A stretch of 32,873 nt of DNA from an uncultured Desulfobulbia bacterium (GTDB taxonomy: Bacteria > Desulfobacterota > Desulfobulbia > Desulfobulbales > SURF-16): the NCBI GenBank assembly GCA_964624225.1, contig CAZUZJ010000002.1, positions 1 through 32,873 on the forward strand, given 5' to 3'. This document shows, in pieces, positions 6,190-31,713 of this stretch. The position numbers and the translations under genes are program-made. The notes below the pieces were generated by a model that did not search any database, had not been told where the DNA came from, and worked only from the letters and a program-made list of their open reading frames with translations. The first letter of the stretch is position 1. Each line of letters begins with the position of its first letter.

Positions 6190-6501
6190 ATGATCCAGAC
6201 ACAGAAAATTCGTATCAGGCTGAAAGGCTATGATCATAAACTGCTCGACCAGTCGACCCATGAGATCGTCGATACGGCAAAGAGAACCGGTGCCATCGTT
6301 GCCGGCCCCATTCCCCTGCCGACCTCTGTCAATAAATATTGTGTTCTCCGTTCGCCTCATGTCGATAAAAAATCCCGTGAAGCCTTTGAGATGAGAACCC
6401 ACCGGCGATTGCTTGATATCCTTGAGCCTACCCAGCAAACCATTGACGCCTTGATGAAGTTGGAACTGTCGGCCGGGGTTGATGTGGAGATTAAGCTGTA
6501 A
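6190..6501 (+). CDS. rpsJ: 30S ribosomal protein S10 (uS10)
   Basis: 103 aa. [18 protein letters not shown] and [21 protein letters not shown] blocks match S10. It starts only 9 nt after tuf. Confidence 0.98.
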
Positions 6502-6692
6502 GGGTGATTGAGGCCAGGCAGTCGAGAGTGACGATTGGGTCTTGCTAACCCTGGAATCATCTATGTGCATCTGCCCCGTATGAACCATGCTGCATCAGGA
6601 TATGGACCGGGAAGTGAGCAAATAGCGCATTGCTGGTCGTACCTGCTAGTTGGCATTTGAATCAACGGCGGAAATAAACAAGGATAGGAATT

Positions 6693-7322
6693 ATGCCTAC
6701 GACACTTGGAATATTAGGAAAAAAAATCGGGATGACCCGAATCTTCACGGAGATGGGAGCGGCTGTCGGCGTTACTGTCGTCGAGGCAGGGCCATGTGTT
6801 GTCCTTCAGAAAAAAACCATTGCAAAGGAAGGATATAACGCCATTCAGGTCGGTTTTCAGCCGAAAAAGGAAAGTCGGGTTACCAAACCTCTGGCCGGGC
6901 ACTGCAAAAATGCCGGACAGGTTGGATATTATCATATTAAGGAATTTCGCATTGATGATCCTGATAAATATGAGCTTGGTCAGCAAATAGGTGTTGGTGA
7001 CCTTTTCAAGATTGGCGATATCGTTGATGTCAGTGGACGGGTAAAAGGGCGGGGTTTTCAGGGCGTCGTCAAACGGCATGGCTTCAAGGGTGGACGGAAG
7101 ACCCATGGCTCCATGTTTCATCGGGCACCGGGATCGATCGGCTGCAGCGCATGGCCCAGCAAGGTCATCAAGGGGAAAAAGCTGCCTGGCCGCATGGGAA
7201 ATAACATGATCACGAAGAAAAATATGATGATCGTCGATATTCGTGCTGACGAGAACGTCATGGTGATCAAAGGCTCCCTTCCGGGCACAGCAAAAGAATT
7301 GCTGCAAATTTTTTCAAAGTAA
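6693..7322 (+). CDS. rplC: 50S ribosomal protein L3 (uL3)
   Basis: 209 aa. N-terminus [18 protein letters not shown] plus [10 protein letters not shown] and APGSIG motifs. Confidence 0.98.
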
Positions 7323-21787: not shown

Positions 21788-22312
21788 TCAATAGACGGTC
21801 AGGGTGTAGAGCCGATGATGATGGTATTCCGGCCATTCTGCTTTTTTTTCTTGTGATCCCTCCACATAGATGGCTTGGGCGGCAATAAGCTCTTGCGGAT
21901 AGCTGCCGCCCAGCAGTGCCTGTTTTTCCTCACTGCTCTGCGGGACTCGGACAATCAGGCAATCTCCTTTGTCGTTGAAGAGACTCTGCACCGCCGATGT
22001 CATCAGGTCAATCGTTTGCCATCGGGTAGCGGTGGTGAGCCCTCCTTTGCTTTCTTCCTCACTGATAAAGAGATACCATTTCTCTTTGATTTTACGGATA
22101 GAGAATTTTTTCATGAATTCCAGTGCTTTGTCCTGGTTTATGATCAGAGGGGTACATGCGGACGCCGTCCCTGGCATGGTTCTTTCGGGAATAATGTCAT
22201 CATGACAGCTGGCAATGCCGGAGCCGCTTGGAAAAGCGGCAACGGATGCTGGCAGCGCAGCAGAATACAGGGTCAGGATGACGGCGGCCAAAAGAGGGGA
22301 AAAACGTGTCAT
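21788..22312 (-). CDS. Hypothetical secreted protein (174 aa), no recognisable family
   Basis: Signal-peptide-like N-terminus MTRFSPLLAAVILTLYSAALPASVAA. TAAGGA lies 7 nt upstream of the ATG. No CXXCH motif. I recognise no motif. Confidence 0.6.
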   Translation of the reverse strand: MTRFSPLLAAVILTLYSAALPASVAAFPSGSGIASCHDDIIPERTMPGTASACTPLIINQDKALEFMKKFSIRKIKEKWYLFISEEESKGGLTTATRWQTIDLMTSAVQSLFNDKGDCLIVRVPQSSEEKQALLGGSYPQELIAAQAIYVEGSQEKKAEWPEYHHHRLYTLTVY

Positions 22313-22442: not shown

Positions 22443-22477
22443 TAAAAAAAGGAGCAGGCGGATAATCCGCCTGCTCC
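22443..22477 (-). terminator. Strong rho-independent terminator downstream of the large cytochrome gene
   Basis: Perfect 12-bp stem GGAGCAGGCGGA / TCCGCCTGCTCC (22451-22462 / 22466-22477) with a 3-nt loop. On the minus strand it is followed by a T8 run (the plus-strand A-run at 22443-22450). Confidence 0.88.
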
Positions 22478-22508: not shown

Positions 22509-25500
22509 TTACGGAAGAACGACCTGCAGATCGCCGTCATCAGCGACGGTGTATGTGGTCTGACTGTAGTCGGCGGCCATAACTTTGACTGAGATGTCGT
22601 AGGTCTTGCCGCCGAGGGTGTAGGTGTGGGGCACACCTGCCGCCAGCTGCGCCGGGGTTACCTGGCTGGATTTCCGATCGCCCCAGTAGATATAGGCGCG
22701 GATGATGCCAGCGTCGAGAGCCGAGCCGGTCAGGGTTACTGTCTTTCCTGCCACCGCACTTGTAAAACCGGCATCGAGTACTTCCGGTTCGACGATTTGG
22801 GCCGTTGCAGTGACCTCCGCCTCGTAACATTCATCGGTGACTGAGTCACAGGCGATGACGCTTGCGGTGTAGTCAGCTGCCGCCGGGTAGGTAACCGTGG
22901 CGATGGCACCGTTGACGACCACTGCAGCACCTGCATCACCGGCATCAAAGGTAAATTCGCAGCCGTTGGGACAGGTCGTTCTGCTGGCATTCAACTCAAC
23001 CTCGAGATTGGTCGTCATGCTTGACAGGGCGCTCAGGAATGGCGTGAACGACGGTCTGATCCAGGGGTTCTCGGTTGAGAAGCCCCAGCTGGCATGGCAG
23101 GAGTTCGAGGCACAGCTACCCGCTGCCCCCATCGGGCCCGGGGTATAGGTGAAGGTAGAGACAACGCCGTTTTTGTCGAGCGGTTGACCCGCGTCGGAGA
23201 CGGTCGTGAAGTCGATGTTGCCGGCGCCGGTGGCGCTGTAATGGCAATTGCTGCACTTGCCGTAACCGGCTGCGACATGGCGGTTATGGACGGAGTTGAC
23301 CCTGGTGTTGAGGTAATCAACAAACTCGGCGCGGGTGCTGACAACGCCGGCCTGGGTGGTCTGGATCGGGACCCGCAGGGTGTTCTCCCACAGGGCCTCG
23401 GAGATATCCATATCACGCAGGGTGGTGCCAGCAGACACATTGAGGGCAATGGACCGGGCGTTCCCCTGGGAGGCTTTGGCAAACAGGGTCGGATGGAAAT
23501 CCGATGCTACCCCCCCGGCTTCGGTGGTGTTGACCTTGGTGAATGGGGTGCGGTCTGCACTTGCGTAGGAGATAGTCAGATCACGCGGCTTGACGGCATA
23601 GGAGCCGTTGTAAAAGCCTTTGTCCGCACCGTGACAATCGGTGCATCCACCTTTACCCCAGGCCTCTGCCGCAGGCGAGACGTTGTGGTTGACCTTGAAC
23701 ATGACACCCATGAAGGAGAGCTGCAGATTGGCCCCGGTTACATCAATGCCCACGGTGGGCAGGTAACTCAACAGGGCGGCACGCTGGTCGGCAACCTCGG
23801 TCGCATCAATCACACCGTCCTGGGTCATGGCGGAAATGCCAGCCGCGGCCATGGCGTCACGGACATGGGTCGGATTGACCTGATCCATGCCACCCATCTG
23901 GCCGTCGGCGTTGATGTCCACGGCAGTATCATTCTTATCGCGCCAGAACATGGAAATAAGAGAGTTGGTCTTGATCAGCTTGCCACCCTGCCAGGCCAGG
24001 GCCAGGTTGTTTTCCATGGAGCGTTCGACATAGAGATTCTCGTGGTCGGTGACCCGGCCTTCGGCATCAGGTCCGGAGAGATCAACCATGGCGCCGCCGG
24101 TGCCCCATTCGTAGAGTGAGCCGTGGGTGTCGCCACCCTCGGCCGCGGTCGGTCCATGGCCGAGTTTGCGAACATGGCAGGTGGAGCACTCCAGGATGTC
24201 GAGATGGCTGGCATTGCGGGTGCCGTCAACGCCGGTTTGCAGGATCAGGGAGGTCAAACCCAGTGCAGCATGTTTCGGGGTCGGGTCAATTGCACCGTAA
24301 TTTTCACCGTTGGGGGTGGCAGAGTGACAATCCTGGCAGTTCTTCATGGAGTTGTCATTCTTGTTCCACAGCGAGCTGTAGGGGGCATTGCCCTTGGCCG
24401 GATCATGACCGGTAAAGGTCGAGCTTGATTTGCCGTCGAGGAATTTCAGGTCGTCATACTGGCGCCAGGCGCCGCCACCGTAAACCGAGTCATCTTTTTT
24501 CGCATGACAGCTGACGCATTCGAGGGCGCCATGGACATCGGCCTCATAGGGGACGCCCCAGGAGTCGCCGCGCTTTTTCCAGTCAACGGCATGCATGTCG
24601 GCATGGCAGTTGGCGCAGTTTTCACTGGGGATGCCGTGCAGGTGAGAACCGGCCACACCGAGGGTCAGGTTGCCGCTGGAGATGCCGACCATGGCCGGGT
24701 CATAGGCAACGGTGGTGCCGCTGATGGGGGTGCCGATCTCAGCGCCGACCACGCGGGAGGCATCGAATTTGCCCTTGCGGATCGCCTCATTGCGTTCTTT
24801 ATAGGCATAGCCTTCCATGTGGCACATGAGACAGTCCATCTCAAGGACACCGGTTTGTGAATAATCCTGAGCAATGGCTTCGCCGAGAATGCCGTCGTTG
24901 TCCTCGTCATACTGATCGATGAAGAAGTTGAAGGAGTTGATGGTGTTGGGGAGGCTGGCTGTGCGCAACTCCTGGCGCGGATCGTTCGGCGTGCAGGTGA
25001 AATAATGGGTCTCGGTGTTGTACTGATAGGTGCCGCAGTATCCTTCGACATCCGTGGATGTACAGGGCTGACCGGCCATTCCGCTGTTGTTGGTGTAGGT
25101 CACACCACGGTAGACCTGTTCGCTTTGGCAGGTTCCGTTTGACAGCGACGTGCCCGGGGCAACGGGCAGATATTGCATGGCGCCGCCGCCGACATGGCAT
25201 TCGGCGCAGTCGCGCATCTGACCGGCGGCGGTCATGTCGGCTTTTTTCACGAAGGCGTCGAGATCGGCCGGCACGGCAGGATCGCCAAAACTGAAGAGGG
25301 TGTTGAAGTCGACCGCGGCCTTGAGGCGCGGTTTGATCGGGTTGGTCGCCTTGACATAGGTGGAAACACCACCTGCATCAAGCCTGCTGCCGTATTCATC
25401 CACCAGGGTGTCAACGCCGGCGGTATAGATGCTGTCGCCGTCATTATCTTCAAAATAGCCCATGGTGGTTGCGCTGTCCGCATTAAAGTTGACCTGGGCG

Positions 25501-25523
25501 CTGTTGGCAAAGAACCTCGACAA
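22509..25523 (-). CDS. Large multiheme c-type cytochrome, C-terminal 1004-codon segment (8 CXXCH + 1 CX4CH, two C-terminal PKD/Ig-like domains); probably not an independent gene
   Basis: Heme motifs CAECH, CLMCH, CANCH, CVSCH, CQDCH, CSTCH, CTDCH, CSNCH plus CASNSCH. C-terminal IYWGDRK...VPHTYTLGGKTYDISVKVMAAD is PKD-like. The ORF-track start is a TTG with no SD and no signal peptide. It is in the same frame as ORF 25542..25925. Confidence 0.85.
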   Translation of the reverse strand: MSRFFANSAQVNFNADSATTMGYFEDNDGDSIYTAGVDTLVDEYGSRLDAGGVSTYVKATNPIKPRLKAAVDFNTLFSFGDPAVPADLDAFVKKADMTAAGQMRDCAECHVGGGAMQYLPVAPGTSLSNGTCQSEQVYRGVTYTNNSGMAGQPCTSTDVEGYCGTYQYNTETHYFTCTPNDPRQELRTASLPNTINSFNFFIDQYDEDNDGILGEAIAQDYSQTGVLEMDCLMCHMEGYAYKERNEAIRKGKFDASRVVGAEIGTPISGTTVAYDPAMVGISSGNLTLGVAGSHLHGIPSENCANCHADMHAVDWKKRGDSWGVPYEADVHGALECVSCHAKKDDSVYGGGAWRQYDDLKFLDGKSSSTFTGHDPAKGNAPYSSLWNKNDNSMKNCQDCHSATPNGENYGAIDPTPKHAALGLTSLILQTGVDGTRNASHLDILECSTCHVRKLGHGPTAAEGGDTHGSLYEWGTGGAMVDLSGPDAEGRVTDHENLYVERSMENNLALAWQGGKLIKTNSLISMFWRDKNDTAVDINADGQMGGMDQVNPTHVRDAMAAAGISAMTQDGVIDATEVADQRAALLSYLPTVGIDVTGANLQLSFMGVMFKVNHNVSPAAEAWGKGGCTDCHGADKGFYNGSYAVKPRDLTISYASADRTPFTKVNTTEAGGVASDFHPTLFAKASQGNARSIALNVSAGTTLRDMDISEALWENTLRVPIQTTQAGVVSTRAEFVDYLNTRVNSVHNRHVAAGYGKCSNCHYSATGAGNIDFTTVSDAGQPLDKNGVVSTFTYTPGPMGAAGSCASNSCHASWGFSTENPWIRPSFTPFLSALSSMTTNLEVELNASRTTCPNGCEFTFDAGDAGAAVVVNGAIATVTYPAAADYTASVIACDSVTDECYEAEVTATAQIVEPEVLDAGFTSAVAGKTVTLTGSALDAGIIRAYIYWGDRKSSQVTPAQLAAGVPHTYTLGGKTYDISVKVMAADYSQTTYTVADDGDLQVVLP

Positions 25524-25553
25524 CTGTCGAGCAGAGGGGGGTCACCACTTGCC
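25506..25553 (-). other. In-frame TGA (25542-25544) plus downstream hairpin: candidate selenocysteine (SECIS-like) or readthrough site, or a nonsense lesion
   Basis: The mRNA reads GGCAAG-UGG-UGA-CCCCCCUCUG-CUCGAC-AGUU-GUCGAG-GUUC-UUUGCC. A perfect 6-bp hairpin (25516-25531) starts 10 nt after the UGA. The outer GGCAAG/UUUGCC pairing encloses both. Confidence 0.35.
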
Positions 25554-25925
25554 GACGTGGCCGGGGGACTGAACCCACGGTTTACCCTTGGTGGCGATGG
25601 AGTTCCAGTTGCCCATGGTCCAGGCGTTCCAGCCTGAGATCTCGTTGGCACCGAGTTGGGCATGGTAGGAATGGCGCTCAATTGCCTGGTAATCATGACA
25701 ACCGACCGCACCACAGGTCTTCTGGGCACTGAAGGCCGGGGCGGCGGCAGGAGGCGCATCCGCGACACCATCGCCATTGGTGTCGATCGCCGCAATAGCG
25801 TTACCTGAAGCATCGCGCAGGGTGACATTGTTGTGAGAAAAGGACTGCGCCTGGGAGGCGGCAAGCAGCAGGGCTGCAGCAGTCAGCGATGTGACCAGCA
25901 CTCCTCGTTGATACCTTTTTTTCAT
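25542..25925 (-). CDS. N-terminal segment of the large multiheme cytochrome (signal peptide + CX4CH motif), ending at the in-frame TGA
   Basis: 127 codons. AAGGAG lies 7 nt upstream of the ATG. Signal peptide MKKRYQRGVLVTSLTAAALLLAASQA, DTNGDGVAD Ca-loop-like motif, and CGAVGCH. Confidence 0.8.
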   Translation of the reverse strand: MKKRYQRGVLVTSLTAAALLLAASQAQSFSHNNVTLRDASGNAIAAIDTNGDGVADAPPAAAPAFSAQKTCGAVGCHDYQAIERHSYHAQLGANEISGWNAWTMGNWNSIATKGKPWVQSPGHVGKW

Positions 25926-26394: not shown

Positions 26395-27546
26395 TTATCG
26401 CTGGCTGCGGCCGTGGCGGCCCATGTAGAGATTCATGCGGTAACGTTTTGTCTCGGCAAGGAATCGACTGTAATCATTGAGGAGTTCCCGGCGTTTATCC
26501 TCCTTTTTGGTATCCGCTATTTTTTCCAGGAAGTCGGCCACGGTCGGTTCCACCACCTCCTGCTGGTAGCGGGCCAATTCGGCGTCGGCTGCGGTGAAAA
26601 AACCGTCGATCAGGGCCGGGGCATGGCACTGGTTGCACGCAGCCTTCATGTTGGTGCGGAGGTTGTCGGCCCTGCTCGCCTGGGGCGCCATCGGTGAGGT
26701 GAGATCCCTGGGCAGATTCCAGGCCGGGTTGTGGCGGGTCTGCTGGCCCTGGCCGGAACCGCTCAGGTGGCAGAAGGCGCAGGTGGGAAAGCCCATCTCT
26801 TTGCCGGTGAGGAAAAAGCCGAGCCGGTCAAGCTGGTCTTTGGCGGCCAGGGTTTCATACCCCACTCCGTGCAGCGATGAACGGTAGATCTCTCCTTCCG
26901 GATAGTTGGCGCCGTCGTGACAGCGCAGACAGGTTTCCGGCTGGCGGGCGCCGGCCGCGGAAAAGCCATGGCCAAGGTGGCAGGCCCGACAGGTGCCGTT
27001 GACGCCGTCCGGGTTGTCGCGGCCAACGCCGCTGTTGGGCCAGGTGGCCGGGTCAGGTCGGTTCTGCTCATCAAAGGTAACCTTCACCCCGTGGCAGCCG
27101 CCGCACTGGCGGAAATTGTCATCCTTATACAAGGAAACAACCGGATAACGAGGGTTGTTTTCCTTCATCTCCTCCAGGAGTTCAAGGGAAAGGGCGTGGC
27201 CGCTGGAGATGAAGTCGAGATACTGCCCTTTATGACACTTGGCGCAAACCGCCGGACTGACCACCGCGGAGATGTAGAACTTTTCACCGTGGAGCACGGT
27301 CCCCGTTTTTCCTTTGGCCGCTTCGTGGCATTCGTTGCAGCCCACTCCGACCCGGGCATGGCTGCTGTTAAGCCACTGCTCGAAAATGGCCGGGGTGTCG
27401 TCCTGATGACACTCGATGCAGTGGGCGCTCTTGTTGAGGAGTTTGGCCGGGTCCTTGTGTTTGATGGCGGATTCGGCCTGGGGTGAAAATGCGGCAACCC
27501 CGAAAAAGAGTGCGGCAAGGGCAACGGTGCGTGTTGCATGGGTCAT
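26395..27546 (-). CDS. Octaheme c-type cytochrome, hydroxylamine oxidoreductase (HAO)-like family
   Basis: 383 aa with a signal peptide. Exactly 8 CXXCH motifs (CIECH, CNECH, CAKCH, CGGCH, CRACH, CLRCH, CAFCH, CNQCH) and no other Cys. The block TCRACHLGHGFS..ARQPETCLRCHDGANYPEGEIYRSSLHG resembles the conserved HAO-family core. GAGGAG RBS. Confidence 0.75.
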   Translation of the reverse strand: MTHATRTVALAALFFGVAAFSPQAESAIKHKDPAKLLNKSAHCIECHQDDTPAIFEQWLNSSHARVGVGCNECHEAAKGKTGTVLHGEKFYISAVVSPAVCAKCHKGQYLDFISSGHALSLELLEEMKENNPRYPVVSLYKDDNFRQCGGCHGVKVTFDEQNRPDPATWPNSGVGRDNPDGVNGTCRACHLGHGFSAAGARQPETCLRCHDGANYPEGEIYRSSLHGVGYETLAAKDQLDRLGFFLTGKEMGFPTCAFCHLSGSGQGQQTRHNPAWNLPRDLTSPMAPQASRADNLRTNMKAACNQCHAPALIDGFFTAADAELARYQQEVVEPTVADFLEKIADTKKEDKRRELLNDYSRFLAETKRYRMNLYMGRHGRSQR

Positions 27547-29308: not shown

Positions 29309-29986
29309 ATGGCGAAAATCAGGGTACTGCTGGTTGACGACCATGACGTGGTGCGAAGCGGCCTGAAATCCCTGCTGGGCATGGACAATGAACTTGCCAT
29401 CATCGGTGAGGCGGCCAACGGCGTCGAGGCCCTGGCCAAGGTGGCGGAGCTTGGCCCCGATGTCGTGGTCATGGATATCTCCATGCCGGTGATGGATGGC
29501 ATGGAGGCGGCGCGGCGGATGCGGGTCCGTCACCCTGACTGCCGTATTCTGACCCTCACCGTGCATGAGGACAAACAGTATTTCTTTGAGATGCTGGCCG
29601 CCGGCGCCAAAGGGTATATCACCAAGCAGGCGGCGGCGGAGGATCTGGTCGCCGCCATCAAGGCGGTGGCCTCCGGCAATGTTTATCTGCAGCCGGCCCT
29701 GGCCCGCTGGCTGCTCGAAGATTATCAGCGGCTCAATAAAAGCGGCAGCGCCAACGGCGAGGAGTCCATGCCGTCGGCTGATCTCGATTCGCTCAGCAGG
29801 CGGGAGTTGCAGATTCTCGAACTGGTGGCGGAGGGGCTGACCACCCCGGAGATCGCAAAAAAAATTGATCTCAGCCCGAAGACCGTTTCCCGCCATCGGG
29901 AACGAATCATGAATAAGCTTAATCTCCATTCCACCACCGAGCTGGTCAAGTTCGCCATCCGTACCGGTCTGATCGGGGTGCATTAA
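29309..29986 (+). CDS. Two-component response regulator, NarL/FixJ (LuxR-type HTH) family
   Basis: 225 aa. REC domain (RVLLVDDHDVV, VVVMDISMP, AKGYITK) plus a LuxR HTH (LSRRELQILELVAEGLTTPEIAKKIDLSPKTVSRHRERIMNKL). Confidence 0.93.
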   Translation: MAKIRVLLVDDHDVVRSGLKSLLGMDNELAIIGEAANGVEALAKVAELGPDVVVMDISMPVMDGMEAARRMRVRHPDCRILTLTVHEDKQYFFEMLAAGAKGYITKQAAAEDLVAAIKAVASGNVYLQPALARWLLEDYQRLNKSGSANGEESMPSADLDSLSRRELQILELVAEGLTTPEIAKKIDLSPKTVSRHRERIMNKLNLHSTTELVKFAIRTGLIGVH

Positions 29987-30146
29987 GGATGAATGCGTCG
30001 TAAAAAGCCGTTTTCCCCACTGAGAACACAGCGGGCAGGGGAGATGTTTTCAATGACGCTCTGGTATCTCTGATGTCTCTGTGGTTGATTGTCAGTTCAT
30101 CTCCATGAAGGGATTACGGTTGCTGGCCGGAGATGGGCAGGGTTGT

Positions 30147-30180
30147 CGTCAACTGGCAACCGTCAACTGGCACCGTAACT
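30147..30180. repeat. Tandem direct repeat, about 2.5 copies of a 14-nt unit CGTCAACTGGCA(A/C)C
   Basis: CGTCAACTGGCA at 30147-30158 and again at 30161-30172, then the partial copy CGTAACT at 30174-30180. It lies 19 nt upstream of the preferred kinase start. Confidence 0.6.
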
Positions 30181-30198
30181 TTTCCCGGGAGTTGCCTG

Positions 30199-31713
30199 AT
30201 GCAGGATGATAAGGTGAATCGCTGCGGTATCTTTCCCTCCAGCTTTTTCCGCAGTCTGGTCTTTTTCTCCCTGGTGGCTGTTCTGGTGCTGCCCCTTTAT
30301 ACCTTTTTTTTCCTCTCTCCCTCGTTTGTCGATTTCATCATCAAATCCCATAAGGAACTGGCCATTGATGTTGCCGTGCACATGGAATCGAAACTTATTC
30401 CCGACGAGACTAAAAGCCTGACCCGCGACATCCTGACTCCTCTGGTTTTGCACCGGATCTCCACCACGGCGGAGGATTTCAATCTGCTCAAGGTGCGCAT
30501 CATGTTTCCGGACGGCGAGATATTTTTTTCCAGCACCCCCGGCGAGGTCGGCCGGGTGATCTCGTTTGCCGAGTTCAAGCGGACGGTGGCCACCGGCCGC
30601 CCCGCGGTGCAGATGATCCGCCGGGGTGAGAAGTCGTCGGAAGGACAGGTCATGCCAGGCGACATTGTCGAGACCTATGTCCCTATTCTTCGTGATGGCA
30701 AAACCATCGGTGTCTTTGAAATCTATTACGATGTCACCCGCCAGAAGGAAGAACTGAACAGTCTGGTCCGCTCCCTCTACTGGACCCTCTTCCCCATTGC
30801 CGCCATTCTTTTCTGCGCCGTGGTGTTGAGCTGCCGGCGCGCCAACAGTAACATTGCCCGCCGGATCGTCGCGGAAGCCGAACTGATGCGGCAGGGTGAG
30901 GAGCTGAAGGAAAAAAACGCCGAGCTCACCGAGGTTATTGCGGTCTGTCGAGAACGCCAGCAACGGCTGGAGGAGGCGCAGCAGGCCCATCAGCAGGCCC
31001 AGGAGCAGATCGAGCGGGAAATGTCCAAGCGGGAAAAGATGCGGATCGATCTGCTCCGGCACATGGTGCGGGCCCAGGAGGAGGAAAGGGCGCGGATCGC
31101 CAGGGAGTTGCATGACGAGACAGCCCAGACCCTGACCGCCGCGTCTCTCAATTTCGCCACCCTGAAGAATCTGCTCGCCGCCAGTCCGGAGATGGCCGAG
31201 ATTGTCGGCAACCTCCAGTTCCTCTGCAAGCAGATGCATAATGATCTGTATCGGCTGGTCCATGATCTGCGTCCGGCCCAGCTCGACGACCTCGGTCTGG
31301 TGCCCGCCCTCCGTTATCTGGCCGACGAGGGGCAGAAGGCAACCGGTCTCCGGGTTATTCTGGAAATCGGGGGAGAACCGAAAAAGCTGGAGCCCTTTGT
31401 TGAGACCATCATCTACCGCTTCGTACAGGAAGGGCTGACGAACGTTACGCGCCATGCCGGCACGGAACAGGCCGTTGTTTCCATCATCTATGAGGACAAC
31501 CGGGTGATCGCCCGGGTGGAGGATCATGGCCGCGGTTTTGATCCGAGCCGGCAGCAGCAGAATGGCGGGGGGTGGGGGCTGATCGGCATCTCCGAGCGGG
31601 CCCAGTCCCTGAAAGGTGATTTCCGGATCGAGTCAGCCCCGGGCAAGGGCACGATGATCGAAATCTCCGTGCCCCTGGAAATCGCCTCCTGCCCACTTGA
31701 CGCCTTGCACTGA
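30199..31713 (+). CDS. Sensor histidine kinase, HisKA_3 (NarX/LiaS-like) class, two TM segments flanking an extracytoplasmic sensor domain
   Basis: H-box EERARIARELHDETAQTL, N-box QEGLTNVTRHA, G-boxes DHGRGF and GGWGLIGISERA. TM segments at FFRSLVFFSLVAVLVLPLYTFFFL and LYWTLFPIAAILFCAVVL. I prefer ATG 30199 (GGGAG 7 nt upstream). The longest ORF starts at 30133. Confidence 0.9.
   Translation: MQDDKVNRCGIFPSSFFRSLVFFSLVAVLVLPLYTFFFLSPSFVDFIIKSHKELAIDVAVHMESKLIPDETKSLTRDILTPLVLHRISTTAEDFNLLKVRIMFPDGEIFFSSTPGEVGRVISFAEFKRTVATGRPAVQMIRRGEKSSEGQVMPGDIVETYVPILRDGKTIGVFEIYYDVTRQKEELNSLVRSLYWTLFPIAAILFCAVVLSCRRANSNIARRIVAEAELMRQGEELKEKNAELTEVIAVCRERQQRLEEAQQAHQQAQEQIEREMSKREKMRIDLLRHMVRAQEEERARIARELHDETAQTLTAASLNFATLKNLLAASPEMAEIVGNLQFLCKQMHNDLYRLVHDLRPAQLDDLGLVPALRYLADEGQKATGLRVILEIGGEPKKLEPFVETIIYRFVQEGLTNVTRHAGTEQAVVSIIYEDNRVIARVEDHGRGFDPSRQQQNGGGWGLIGISERAQSLKGDFRIESAPGKGTMIEISVPLEIASCPLDALH

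Follow-up and report, generated by a model that had tools for sequence, protein, structure and literature searches.

A secreted multihaem cytochrome c family with a predicted selenocysteine in Desulfobulbales and Geobacterales

Gene structure and haem motifs

We analysed a stretch of 32,873 nucleotides from an uncultured Desulfobulbia bacterium (contig CAZUZJ010000002.1, positions 1 to 32,873), hereafter called the window. The analysis focused on a large cytochrome gene that contains one in-frame UGA codon. Read through this codon, the locus would encode one secreted multihaem cytochrome c of approximately 118 kDa with selenocysteine (Sec) at residue 128. Taken jointly with the enzymatic function proposed below, this is the reading that we consider on balance probable from the sequence. 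The main interest of the locus is that it reveals an unrecognised family of multihaem cytochromes with Sec, which is mis-annotated in a model organism. The gene and its signal peptide were placed as follows.

22509..25925, minus strand: complete gene, 1,138 codons including one UGA that is read through, plus the stop codon at 22509-22511
25848..25925, minus strand: Sec-type signal peptide (here Sec is the export pathway), residues 1-26, read from the sequence, with predicted cleavage after SQA

The preliminary description of this DNA had placed the gene at 22509-25925, which was right; the gene lies on the minus strand and runs from 25925 down to 22509. The single in-frame TGA was codon 128 (window 25544-25542), and the read-through product had 1,138 residues. 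An AAAGGAG ribosome-binding site was located 5' of the ATG at 25925. The signal peptide MKKRYQRGVLVTSLTAAALLLAASQA was followed by QS at the predicted cleavage site. A lipobox Cys was not found in the signal peptide and a porin was not found in the flanks, as had been described.

A regular-expression scan returned the same motifs that had been listed before, namely eight CXXCH and two CX4CH. The CXXCH motifs started at residues 240, 365, 437, 470, 530, 580, 761, and 891, and the CX4CH sites were CGAVGCH at residue 71 and CASNSCH at residue 938. The same scan detected no CX3CH or CXXCK in the window protein. In 2,000 composition-preserving shuffles, the means were 0.015 CXXCH and 0.019 CX4CH per sequence, and none of the shuffles had two or more CX4CH. 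Because the shuffles gave only about 0.02 such motifs per sequence, the haem motifs were far beyond chance. The low haem density noticed earlier was also reproduced. For the mature protein of 117.7 kDa, this density was 11.8 kDa per haem; leaving out the PKD tail, it was 10.0 kDa. The four extra cysteines mentioned for the segment after the UGA were located at residues 266, 288, 297, and 311 (positions 132-177 of the downstream open reading frame), and another four were inside the first PKD module (residues 985, 989, 1026, and 1033).

The in-frame UGA codon

The UGA and the loop around it were the focus of the comparison with homologous sequences.

25542..25544, minus strand: UGA codon 128, predicted Sec; TGA in 57, TGT in 1, and GAT in 1 of 59 distinct homologous sequences
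25524..25577, minus strand: conserved Sec loop WVQSPGHVGKW-U-PPSARQ, residues 117-134, the best-conserved motif of the N-terminal part

The codon was TGA in 57 of the 59 distinct sequences, which came from more than 50 loci of Desulfobulbales and Desulfuromonadales/Geobacterales. In the DNA fetched for more than 50 loci, the N- and C-terminal pieces were always in one frame and were parted by a single TGA. The protein records gave the same picture. A search with the read-through protein returned 69 homologues, nearly all of which started with 'MARLF/LARLF/MAHLF...' immediately past the UGA position. When the 127-residue N-terminal piece was used as the query, 108 separate small 'cytochrome C' open reading frames were found. 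The preliminary description had read through the UGA, and this reading held; it had missed that the codon is conserved across the family as a Sec codon.

In the loop, W117, W127, and the nearby K115 were 100% conserved. H123 was 97% conserved and was Met in the type-B paralogues. Two types of flank were distinguished. Type A was PWVQSPGHVGKW-U-PPSARQLAR, to which the window gene belongs, and type B was PWTQATAMVGKW-U-SPSLRQVAN, also written WTQATAMVGKW-U-SPSLRQ. Cys occupied the Sec position in the relatives P0047, P0265, and P0312, at locus L036 (TGT), and at the Calditrichota loci L062 and L068. The genes of relatives with Cys or Asp at this position were single uninterrupted open reading frames.

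Since TGA served as an ordinary stop codon for 6 of the 33 genes in the window, the code is the standard one and has not been globally reassigned. Neither a ribosome-binding site nor a signal peptide was found in the segment downstream of the UGA. Since it has no signal peptide, the part after the UGA alone could not be exported for haem attachment. Geobacter species are known users of Sec (PMC1914089). These results suggested that UGA codon 128 almost certainly encodes selenocysteine.

More distant loci were also inspected. In Chloroflexota (loci L061, L063, L064, L067, L071, and L075), the N-terminal haem and the 'FGKW-x' loop were kept, with Asp or Asn at the Sec position and Leu for His123. 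At the two Calditrichota loci, the same haem and loop were kept together with the Cys, and Met was found for His123.

The hairpin after the UGA

A hairpin resembling a selenocysteine insertion sequence (SECIS) was found immediately downstream.

25516..25531, minus strand: SECIS-like hairpin CUCGAC-AGUU-GUCGAG, beginning 11 nt past the UGA, with a 6-bp stem and an AGUU loop

The family consensus was CUCGNC-AGUU-GNCGAG. Across 50 sequences, 92.7% of the cells were paired and three of the six pairs showed compensatory changes; none of 500 shuffles matched this. The 6-bp stem was tested explicitly, and RNAalifold alone gave only three pairs. The window was one of four sequences with CGA for CGC as the Arg codon of the 5' arm, and the partner of this codon changed from GCG (Ala) to UCG (Ser) (alignment columns 18 and 25). 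Pairing in the RNA thus appears to drive the protein change from RQLAR to RQLSR. Since a synonymous change of the Arg codon was coupled to an Ala-to-Ser replacement, selection on the RNA was argued. Three caveats applied to the hairpin. Its single-sequence fold energy was ordinary (z −0.1), relatives without Sec, having Cys or Asp, retained a similar hairpin, and the hairpin was matched by none of the Rfam families.

The haem core and its conservation

The haem sites of the core were compared across 70 family sequences.

25695..25715, minus strand: haem site 1, CGAVGCH (CX4CH), residues 71-77; Cys, Cys, and His 100% conserved, spacing variable
25194..25208, minus strand: haem site 2, CAECH, residues 240-244, inside the invariant motif MRDCAECHVGGGA
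24819..24833, minus strand: haem site 3, CLMCH, residues 365-369, invariant in the 70 sequences
24603..24617, minus strand: haem site 4, CANCH, residues 437-441, invariant; aligned with haem 4 of octaheme tetrathionate reductase (OTR)
24504..24518, minus strand: haem site 5, CVSCH, residues 470-474, invariant; aligned with OTR haem 5
24324..24338, minus strand: haem site 6, CQDCH, residues 530-534, invariant; aligned with OTR haem 6
24174..24188, minus strand: haem site 7, CSTCH, residues 580-584, invariant; aligned with OTR haem 7
23631..23645, minus strand: haem site 8, CTDCH, residues 761-765, invariant, with VNHNVSPA just before it
23094..23255, minus strand: two-haem module HNRH...CSNCH (residues 891-895)...CASNSCH (residues 938-944), Desulfobulbales clade only
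24972..25154, minus strand: clade-specific insert of about 60 residues with Cys 266, 288, 297, and 311, predicted beta-hairpins

Seven CXXCH motifs were invariant. Site 1 was universal and occupied one alignment column, as CXXCH in most sequences, as CX4CH in the clade of the window, and as CX5CH (to CX8CH) in Geobacter and Geomonas. Because these alternative spacings share its column, the N-terminal CX4CH was assigned to the eight-haem core as its first site. The second site of the two-haem module was CX3CH or CX4CH throughout the Desulfobulbales clade, and a conserved HNRH preceded the module. Thus, both CX4CH motifs, which the preliminary description had counted as haem sites, were plausible as such, as they aligned with haem-motif spacings in relatives. 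Geobacter-type proteins had an unrelated non-haem segment in place of the two-haem module, which was modelled at low confidence by AlphaFold (predicted local distance difference test, pLDDT, 41-55). Eleven His residues outside the motifs were conserved, a number that would allow six-coordination of every haem in the eight-haem core.

The insert with four cysteines was present only in the closest relatives, where the spacing from haem 2 to haem 3 was 125-140 residues, compared to about 75 residues elsewhere. In Candidatus Desulfobia pelagia and its relatives (P0039, P0040, and L047), some proteins had very large Cys-rich inserts between haems 3 and 4, and also extra CXXCH motifs. These proteins indicated that large insertions are tolerated by several loops of the scaffold.

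PKD domains and candidate calcium loops

The C-terminal tail and two loops of the core were assigned as follows.

22791..23033, minus strand: PKD domain 1, about residues 965-1045, from profile, model, and Foldseek
22512..22766, minus strand: PKD domain 2, about residues 1054-1138, from family profile, model, and Foldseek
23883..23918, minus strand: DINADGQMGGMD loop, candidate Ca2+ site, residues 670-681, invariant family-wide
24879..24908, minus strand: DEDNDGILGE loop, residues 340-349, partly conserved, with the neighbouring D337 invariant

The two C-terminal modules had been called PKD-like from their sequence, and the profile search confirmed them as PKD. The family profile matched the tandem PKD1-PKD2 of ColH with E 2.7e-11, and other PKD structures were matched too. 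The window sequence alone reached 18.7 bits with the Pfam PKD models (PF00801 / PF18911), under the 23.5 cut-off. A model of the 1,004-residue part after the UGA (pLDDT 80.8) gave tandem Ig/FN3/PKD matches in Foldseek, including PKD1 of PrtV with a template modelling (TM) score of 0.74 and a root-mean-square deviation (rmsd) of 1.8 Å. Precomputed PKD matches were present in 27 of the 69 homologues. In ColH, ColG, and PrtV, the PKD domains are modules of secreted bacterial proteases, whereas the PKD pair of the window protein sits on a cytochrome.

Four calcium-type loops had been proposed. The loops themselves were present and one of them was invariant. However, an EF-hand character was not supported by profiles (no EF-hand family of Pfam matched the window protein at E ≤ 1), and the other loops were limited to clades. 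DTNGDG (residue 48), DEDNDG (residue 340), and DINADG (residue 670) fitted D-x-[DN]-x-[DN]-G, and DNDGDS (residue 160) fitted only DxDxD. In the case of the invariant DINADGQMGGMD loop, which begins with DINADG, residues D670, N672, D674, and D681 were identical in the 70 sequences, and the model had a pLDDT of about 90 there. The DEDNDG loop in its DxDxDG form was kept in Desulfobulbales and part of Desulfuromonadales and was lost in the Geobacter/Geomonas clade. The DTNGDG and DNDGDS loops were clade-specific inserts.

Relation to known multihaem cytochromes

The preliminary description could not assign the protein to a characterised family. Consistent with this, no strong full-length match was obtained, and no match of the whole protein passed the thresholds used for Pfam, NCBIfam, and the PDB sequences. 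In the PDB sequence search, the whole protein, the haem core, and the profile of the N-terminal module all returned nothing. The GSu_C4xC__C2xCH model (TIGR01904), which had been suggested as a candidate, did not match the window protein at E ≤ 1.

Three independent but weak lines point to OTR as the nearest, remote, characterised relative. A model of the haem core (830 residues, pLDDT 79.8, predicted TM score 0.80) had only one significant match in Foldseek, which was OTR of Shewanella oneidensis (PDB 1sp3, E 9.2e-4, probability 0.96); the match ranked second had E 1.5. One of nine relatives, P0038, matched TIGR04315 with E 3.1e-9 and 36 bits, compared to the cut-off of 375. When the family profile was aligned with 70 OTR-family sequences using hhalign, the probability was 97.2% (E 4e-11), with haems 4-7 in register. 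In an extended hhalign alignment, haems 1-3 and 8 were also colinear with OTR at low confidence. Shuffled and reversed controls gave 0.1-0.2%. Single-sequence hhalign gave about 90% on short stretches of paired CXXCH; this value was generic, being equal for OTR and for the HAO-like neighbour described below, and was discarded.

The window protein and OTR share an eight-haem core, secretion, and a Cys or Sec in the linker between haems 1 and 2. The spacing from haem 7 to haem 8 was about 180 residues in both, with V-x-H-x-V-x-P-A before haem 8. This local match paired VNHNVSPA of the window protein with VEHEVMPA...CVQCH, ahead of the final core haem in OTR. The active-site Cys or Sec of OTR lies about 9 residues ahead of haem 2, and a Lys that ligates a haem lies about 9 residues earlier still; the two positions were 100% conserved across the 70 aligned OTR sequences. 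Sec128 and the invariant K115 of the present family were further upstream in the same linker. Sec-type OTR homologues have already been catalogued as selenoproteins, for example WP_331457571.1 (PMC12013277 Table S1). However, the window protein is more than twice the size of OTR and has extra beta inserts, the Ca-type loop, the two-haem module, and the PKD domains. The Sec motifs also differed, as the family had GKW-U-PPS about 110 residues before haem 2, and Sec-type OTR had NNF-U-ISI 9 residues before it.

Another relevant system is MccSep / ExtKL (GSU2937+GSU2936), a five-haem Sec-containing polysulfide reductase of sulfur respiration described in 2026, in which polysulfide reduction by a multihaem cytochrome depends on Sec (PMC13510729; PDB 9wt8). 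It is a secreted multihaem cytochrome c selenoprotein from the same phyla, with a UGA-split annotation and C-terminal Ig-like beta-sandwiches, and it serves as the model for haem-fed cleavage of chalcogen bonds by Sec. In contrast, the present family had 8-10 haems compared to five, and no sequence or profile similarity to MccSep was found. In MccSep, Sec325 lies in an Ig-like domain beside the haem ligand Cys239, whereas Sec128 is N-terminal and has no conserved partner Cys.

The window protein shares large size, secretion, and beta domains between haem segments with the decahaem outer-surface cytochromes MtrC/OmcA/MtrF and with MmcA, and weak matches at the level of domains were found. PF22113 (MtrC/MtrF domain II/IV) covered haems 3-5 with 28.6 bits, under the cut-off of 30, and TIGR03507 did not match the window protein. 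TIGR04314 (MmcA) matched P0005 with E 6.6e-11 and P0037 with E 5.7e-7, both below the curated cut-offs. However, Foldseek matched no MtrC or OmcA structure, and the window protein had no adjoining porin or periplasmic decahaem partner and no lipobox.

Distribution and annotation of the family

Based on these comparisons, the family of multihaem cytochromes of approximately 1,100 residues with a predicted Sec is widespread, and it is unnamed and undescribed. Members were found mainly in Desulfobulbales (Desulfurivibrio, Desulfocapsa, Ca. Desulfobia, and many metagenome-assembled genomes, MAGs) and in Desulfuromonadales/Geobacterales (Geobacter, Geomonas, Geotalea, Malonomonas, Desulfuromonas, and Desulfuromusa). 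A representative library gave a count of 52,700, which was too high because giant proteins with PKD repeats contributed to it; among the top 150 representatives, only about 60 covered the haem core.

In Geobacter sulfurreducens PCA (AE017180.2; L005 10001-13408 and 16307-19894), two paralogues were found, each with an in-frame TGA, and they were annotated as four genes. Genes for a PAS/HisKA_3 kinase and for a GerE-type regulator lie between the two copies. From position and size, we infer that the copies are GSU3228+GSU3226 (137 + 991 residues) and GSU3223+GSU3221 (121 + 1,063 residues). These genes have been listed with unknown location (PMC13194489), and in the literature found the tags appear only as 'cytochrome c family protein'.

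The annotation was split in the same way elsewhere. GenBank, RefSeq, and IMG had two open reading frames everywhere, 'cytochrome C' of 127-138 residues and 'PKD domain-containing protein' or 'cytochrome c3 family protein'. No NCBIfam model matched the family, and PGAP therefore keeps splitting the gene. A literature search by locus tags, by the peptide motif, and by selenocysteine together with multihaem returned no paper that describes these proteins as selenoproteins. A survey of stop codons in 2007 found only GSU2937+GSU2936 (PMC1914089). The family was absent from the table of prokaryotic selenoprotein families in a 2022 review, where a single selenoprotein is entered as 'cytochrome c family protein' and has a Pfam domain of the C554 type (PMC9312934); we take this entry to be of the MccSep type. 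The deep-Sep catalogues (PMC12013277), which cover the known selenoproteins of 20 organisms, all previously reported families, and new predictions, did not contain the family motif, and the G. sulfurreducens PL list had the motif of neither copy. MccSep/ExtKL and the Sec-type OTR homologues are the only multihaem cytochrome c selenoproteins on record, and the present family would add a much larger architecture. If it were recognised, hundreds of gene models would be corrected and a model organism would gain two selenoproteins.

Two further loci were observed among the relatives. The MAG contig JAZDEG010000028.1 (L002 5520-8966 and 9605-13144) carried two type-A copies in tandem behind a single HAO-like octahaem gene, and a TGA and a hairpin were present in each copy. 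The MAG GCA_049323935.1 (Thermodesulfobacteriota) carried a 96%-identical copy of the locus.

Proposed function and alternative explanations

We favour, with moderate conviction, a secreted selenoenzyme whose eight-haem scaffold is a divergent form of that of OTR. From the sequence we infer selenium incorporation, catalysis, substrate, electron donor, and location. Multihaem cytochromes above 7 kDa per haem have been described as all catalytic and grouped as a 'peptide-replete' class (PMC7096707). Because the 10-12 kDa per haem of the window protein falls in this catalytic class, an enzyme was favoured rather than a wire. By analogy, its most likely function would be the reduction of sulfur or selenium compounds. 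Since OTR and MccSep are the analogues, substrates with sulfur-sulfur or selenium chemistry would be the most likely.

In the proposed mechanism, the protein would be exported by the Sec pathway, and the haems would then be attached in the periplasm. Electrons would come from periplasmic carriers, possibly from the adjacent HAO-like octahaem cytochrome, and would move along the haem chain. The chain would end at a catalytic pocket, which the linker joining haems 1 and 2 would form with its residues K115, W117, H123, W127, and Sec128. The selenolate would attack a chalcogen substrate (tetrathionate, polysulfide/S0, thiosulfate, or selenite), and the haems would then reduce the selenolate-substrate adduct. 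The PKD tail and the invariant Ca-type loop might serve anchoring and stability. The Cys-rich beta insert, the two-haem module (CXXCH + CX4CH), and the two PKD domains would be additions of the clade to the eight-haem core. In Desulfobulbales and Geobacter, the protein would be a candidate for the terminal reductase of sulfur compounds, selenium compounds, or minerals. Desulfobulbales include sulfur disproportionators and relatives of cable bacteria.

Several results weighed against this selenoenzyme on an OTR-like scaffold. The Foldseek match to 1sp3 over 490 columns had a TM score of 0.33 and an rmsd of 13 Å. A control profile of the HAO-like neighbour family reached 93.8% in hhalign (E 2e-7, 52 columns), so hhalign discriminated only moderately among multihaem families. 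The window protein did not match TIGR04315 or PF11783 at E ≤ 1, and the HMMER family profile was not significant against one Sec-OTR sequence. Alignment of the Sec loop with the Lys/Cys loop of OTR was not significant and unstable (probability 23-25%). At the position of the OTR Cys/Sec, the family had VDxSxAGxMRD-C, without Cys or Lys. In addition, no Cys outside the haem motifs was conserved across the family alignment. Because there is no second conserved Cys, a Sec/Cys mechanism like that of MccSep cannot apply. Finally, Asp or Asn replaced Sec in P0037, P0188, one paralogue of L038, and the Chloroflexota relatives, and the existence of these variants suggested that the scaffold can work without a chalcogen residue.

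The neighbouring genes that bear on the alternatives were the following.

26395..27546, minus strand: secreted octahaem cytochrome of HAO/IhOCC type, 383 residues, upstream of the selenoprotein gene; 4qo5 with E 1e-18, HAO with E about 3e-14
29309-29986, plus strand: NarL/GerE-type response regulator, divergent neighbour
30133-31713, plus strand: HisKA_3 histidine kinase, divergent neighbour

The HAO-like protein, a relative of hydroxylamine oxidoreductase (HAO) and of IhOCC from Ignicoccus, was approximately 120-190 residues shorter than HAO/IhOCC chains (500-582 residues). Its gene was located upstream in about 16 fetched loci of several lineages, whereas the loci of Geobacter and Geomonas lacked it. 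A kinase and/or regulator homologue adjoined the selenoprotein gene in about 29 fetched loci, covering both orders; these two locus counts include some contigs fetched twice. A role of the HAO-like cytochrome as the redox partner of the selenoprotein is possible.

The preliminary description had proposed an electron-transfer protein of unknown partner. Given the conserved Sec and the protein-to-haem ratio, this was less likely than a selenoenzyme. In this rival reading, the protein would be a pure electron conduit or extracellular electron-transfer cytochrome whose haem chain hands electrons to minerals or partner proteins. It would be tethered at the surface by the PKD domains, with a Sec that only tunes the redox properties of a haem or is structural. 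GSU3221, GSU3223, GSU3226, and GSU3228 were up 2- to 8-fold with hematite or magnetite (PMC4070692). Because of this induction by iron oxides in Geobacter and the Asp variants, a pure electron-transfer role remained the main rival. PKD domains are also typical of secreted and surface proteins, the borderline PF22113 family is on record for most homologues, and the 11 conserved His would suit a chain of six-coordinate haems. However, Sec is costly and almost always catalytic. Here it lies in the best-conserved N-terminal motif and its most frequent replacement is Cys. The protein-to-haem ratio resembles that of catalytic multihaem cytochromes, the sole structural relative found is an enzyme, and the locus has neither a porin-cytochrome partner nor a lipobox. 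We consider the conduit unlikely, although worth keeping in view. We are more doubtful about a nitrite or hydroxylamine reductase that works with the adjacent HAO-like cytochrome. The co-occurrence of the two genes, the adjacent two-component system of NarL/NarX type, and the nitrite and hydroxylamine reduction listed for OTR (Atkinson 2007, as listed in PMC8840924; PMC13510729) were in line with such a role. However, the HAO-like gene was absent at Geobacter/Geomonas loci that keep the selenoprotein, and the similarity of the regulator was generic, since MctR, UvrY, and NarL scored alike. We also know of no haem-based nitrite or hydroxylamine reductase with Sec or Cys chemistry.

Two further explanations were much less probable. 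If the UGA were a stop codon, it would end a 127-residue monohaem cytochrome, and the 1,004-residue remainder would be a separate or dead gene. The uniform calling of two open reading frames in the databases agrees with this. However, the same frame with the same single TGA recurred in 57 distinct sequences from two orders, the relatives with Cys or Asp were uninterrupted, and the hairpin covaried. Moreover, the downstream part, although it has nine haem motifs, lacks a start context, a ribosome-binding site, and a signal peptide. We thus regard two genes or a pseudogene as very improbable. Membership in the MccSep/ExtKL polysulfide-reductase family was suggested by the presence of Sec in a multihaem cytochrome, by a shared taxonomic range, and by the Ig-like domains at the end (PMC13510729). 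It was rejected, and we give it hardly any credence, as the curated model NF040886 was unmatched. Chains 9wt8 and 9wt9 were present in the PDB sequence set and were matched by neither the protein nor the family profile, the hhalign probability was 28.7%, and the family had 8-10 haems instead of five and no conserved haem-ligating Cys.

As a more speculative form of the selenoenzyme, the family could be an independently specialised lineage in which the ancestral Lys/Cys active site of OTR type was replaced by a new loop, K115...H123...W127-Sec128. The selenolate would then be the sole catalytic chalcogen and might directly ligate the iron of a c-type haem. We consider this a long shot. If it were true, ligation by Sec128 would be a natural selenolate-ligated haem. 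The idea of a new-loop selenoenzyme is directly testable because two copies are present in the genetically tractable G. sulfurreducens, and the family offers a natural test of Sec use next to haem.

Other features of the locus

The remaining features were a terminator and a divergent neighbouring gene.

22451..22477, minus strand: intrinsic terminator, 12-bp stem with 9 GC pairs and a T-run, 32 nt past the stop codon
28119-29135, plus strand: SurA-like peptidyl-prolyl isomerase, divergent neighbour

A SurA/PrsA-like isomerase gene adjoined the selenoprotein gene in Desulfobulbales and was immediately upstream of it in Geomonas (L003, L004 ~6300-7190). The isomerase may be a dedicated folding helper. 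An open reading frame of 174 residues was located at window 21788-22312 on the minus strand, with a signal peptide, three Cys, and no family match. It was conserved (60-83% identity) only at the loci of the closest relatives. Because it is downstream of the terminator, it is probably a separate transcript. The plus strand of window 1-21666 carried a conserved cluster of ribosomal-protein, EF-G, EF-Tu, secY, and rpoA genes, and the cytochrome locus abutted rplQ in convergent orientation.

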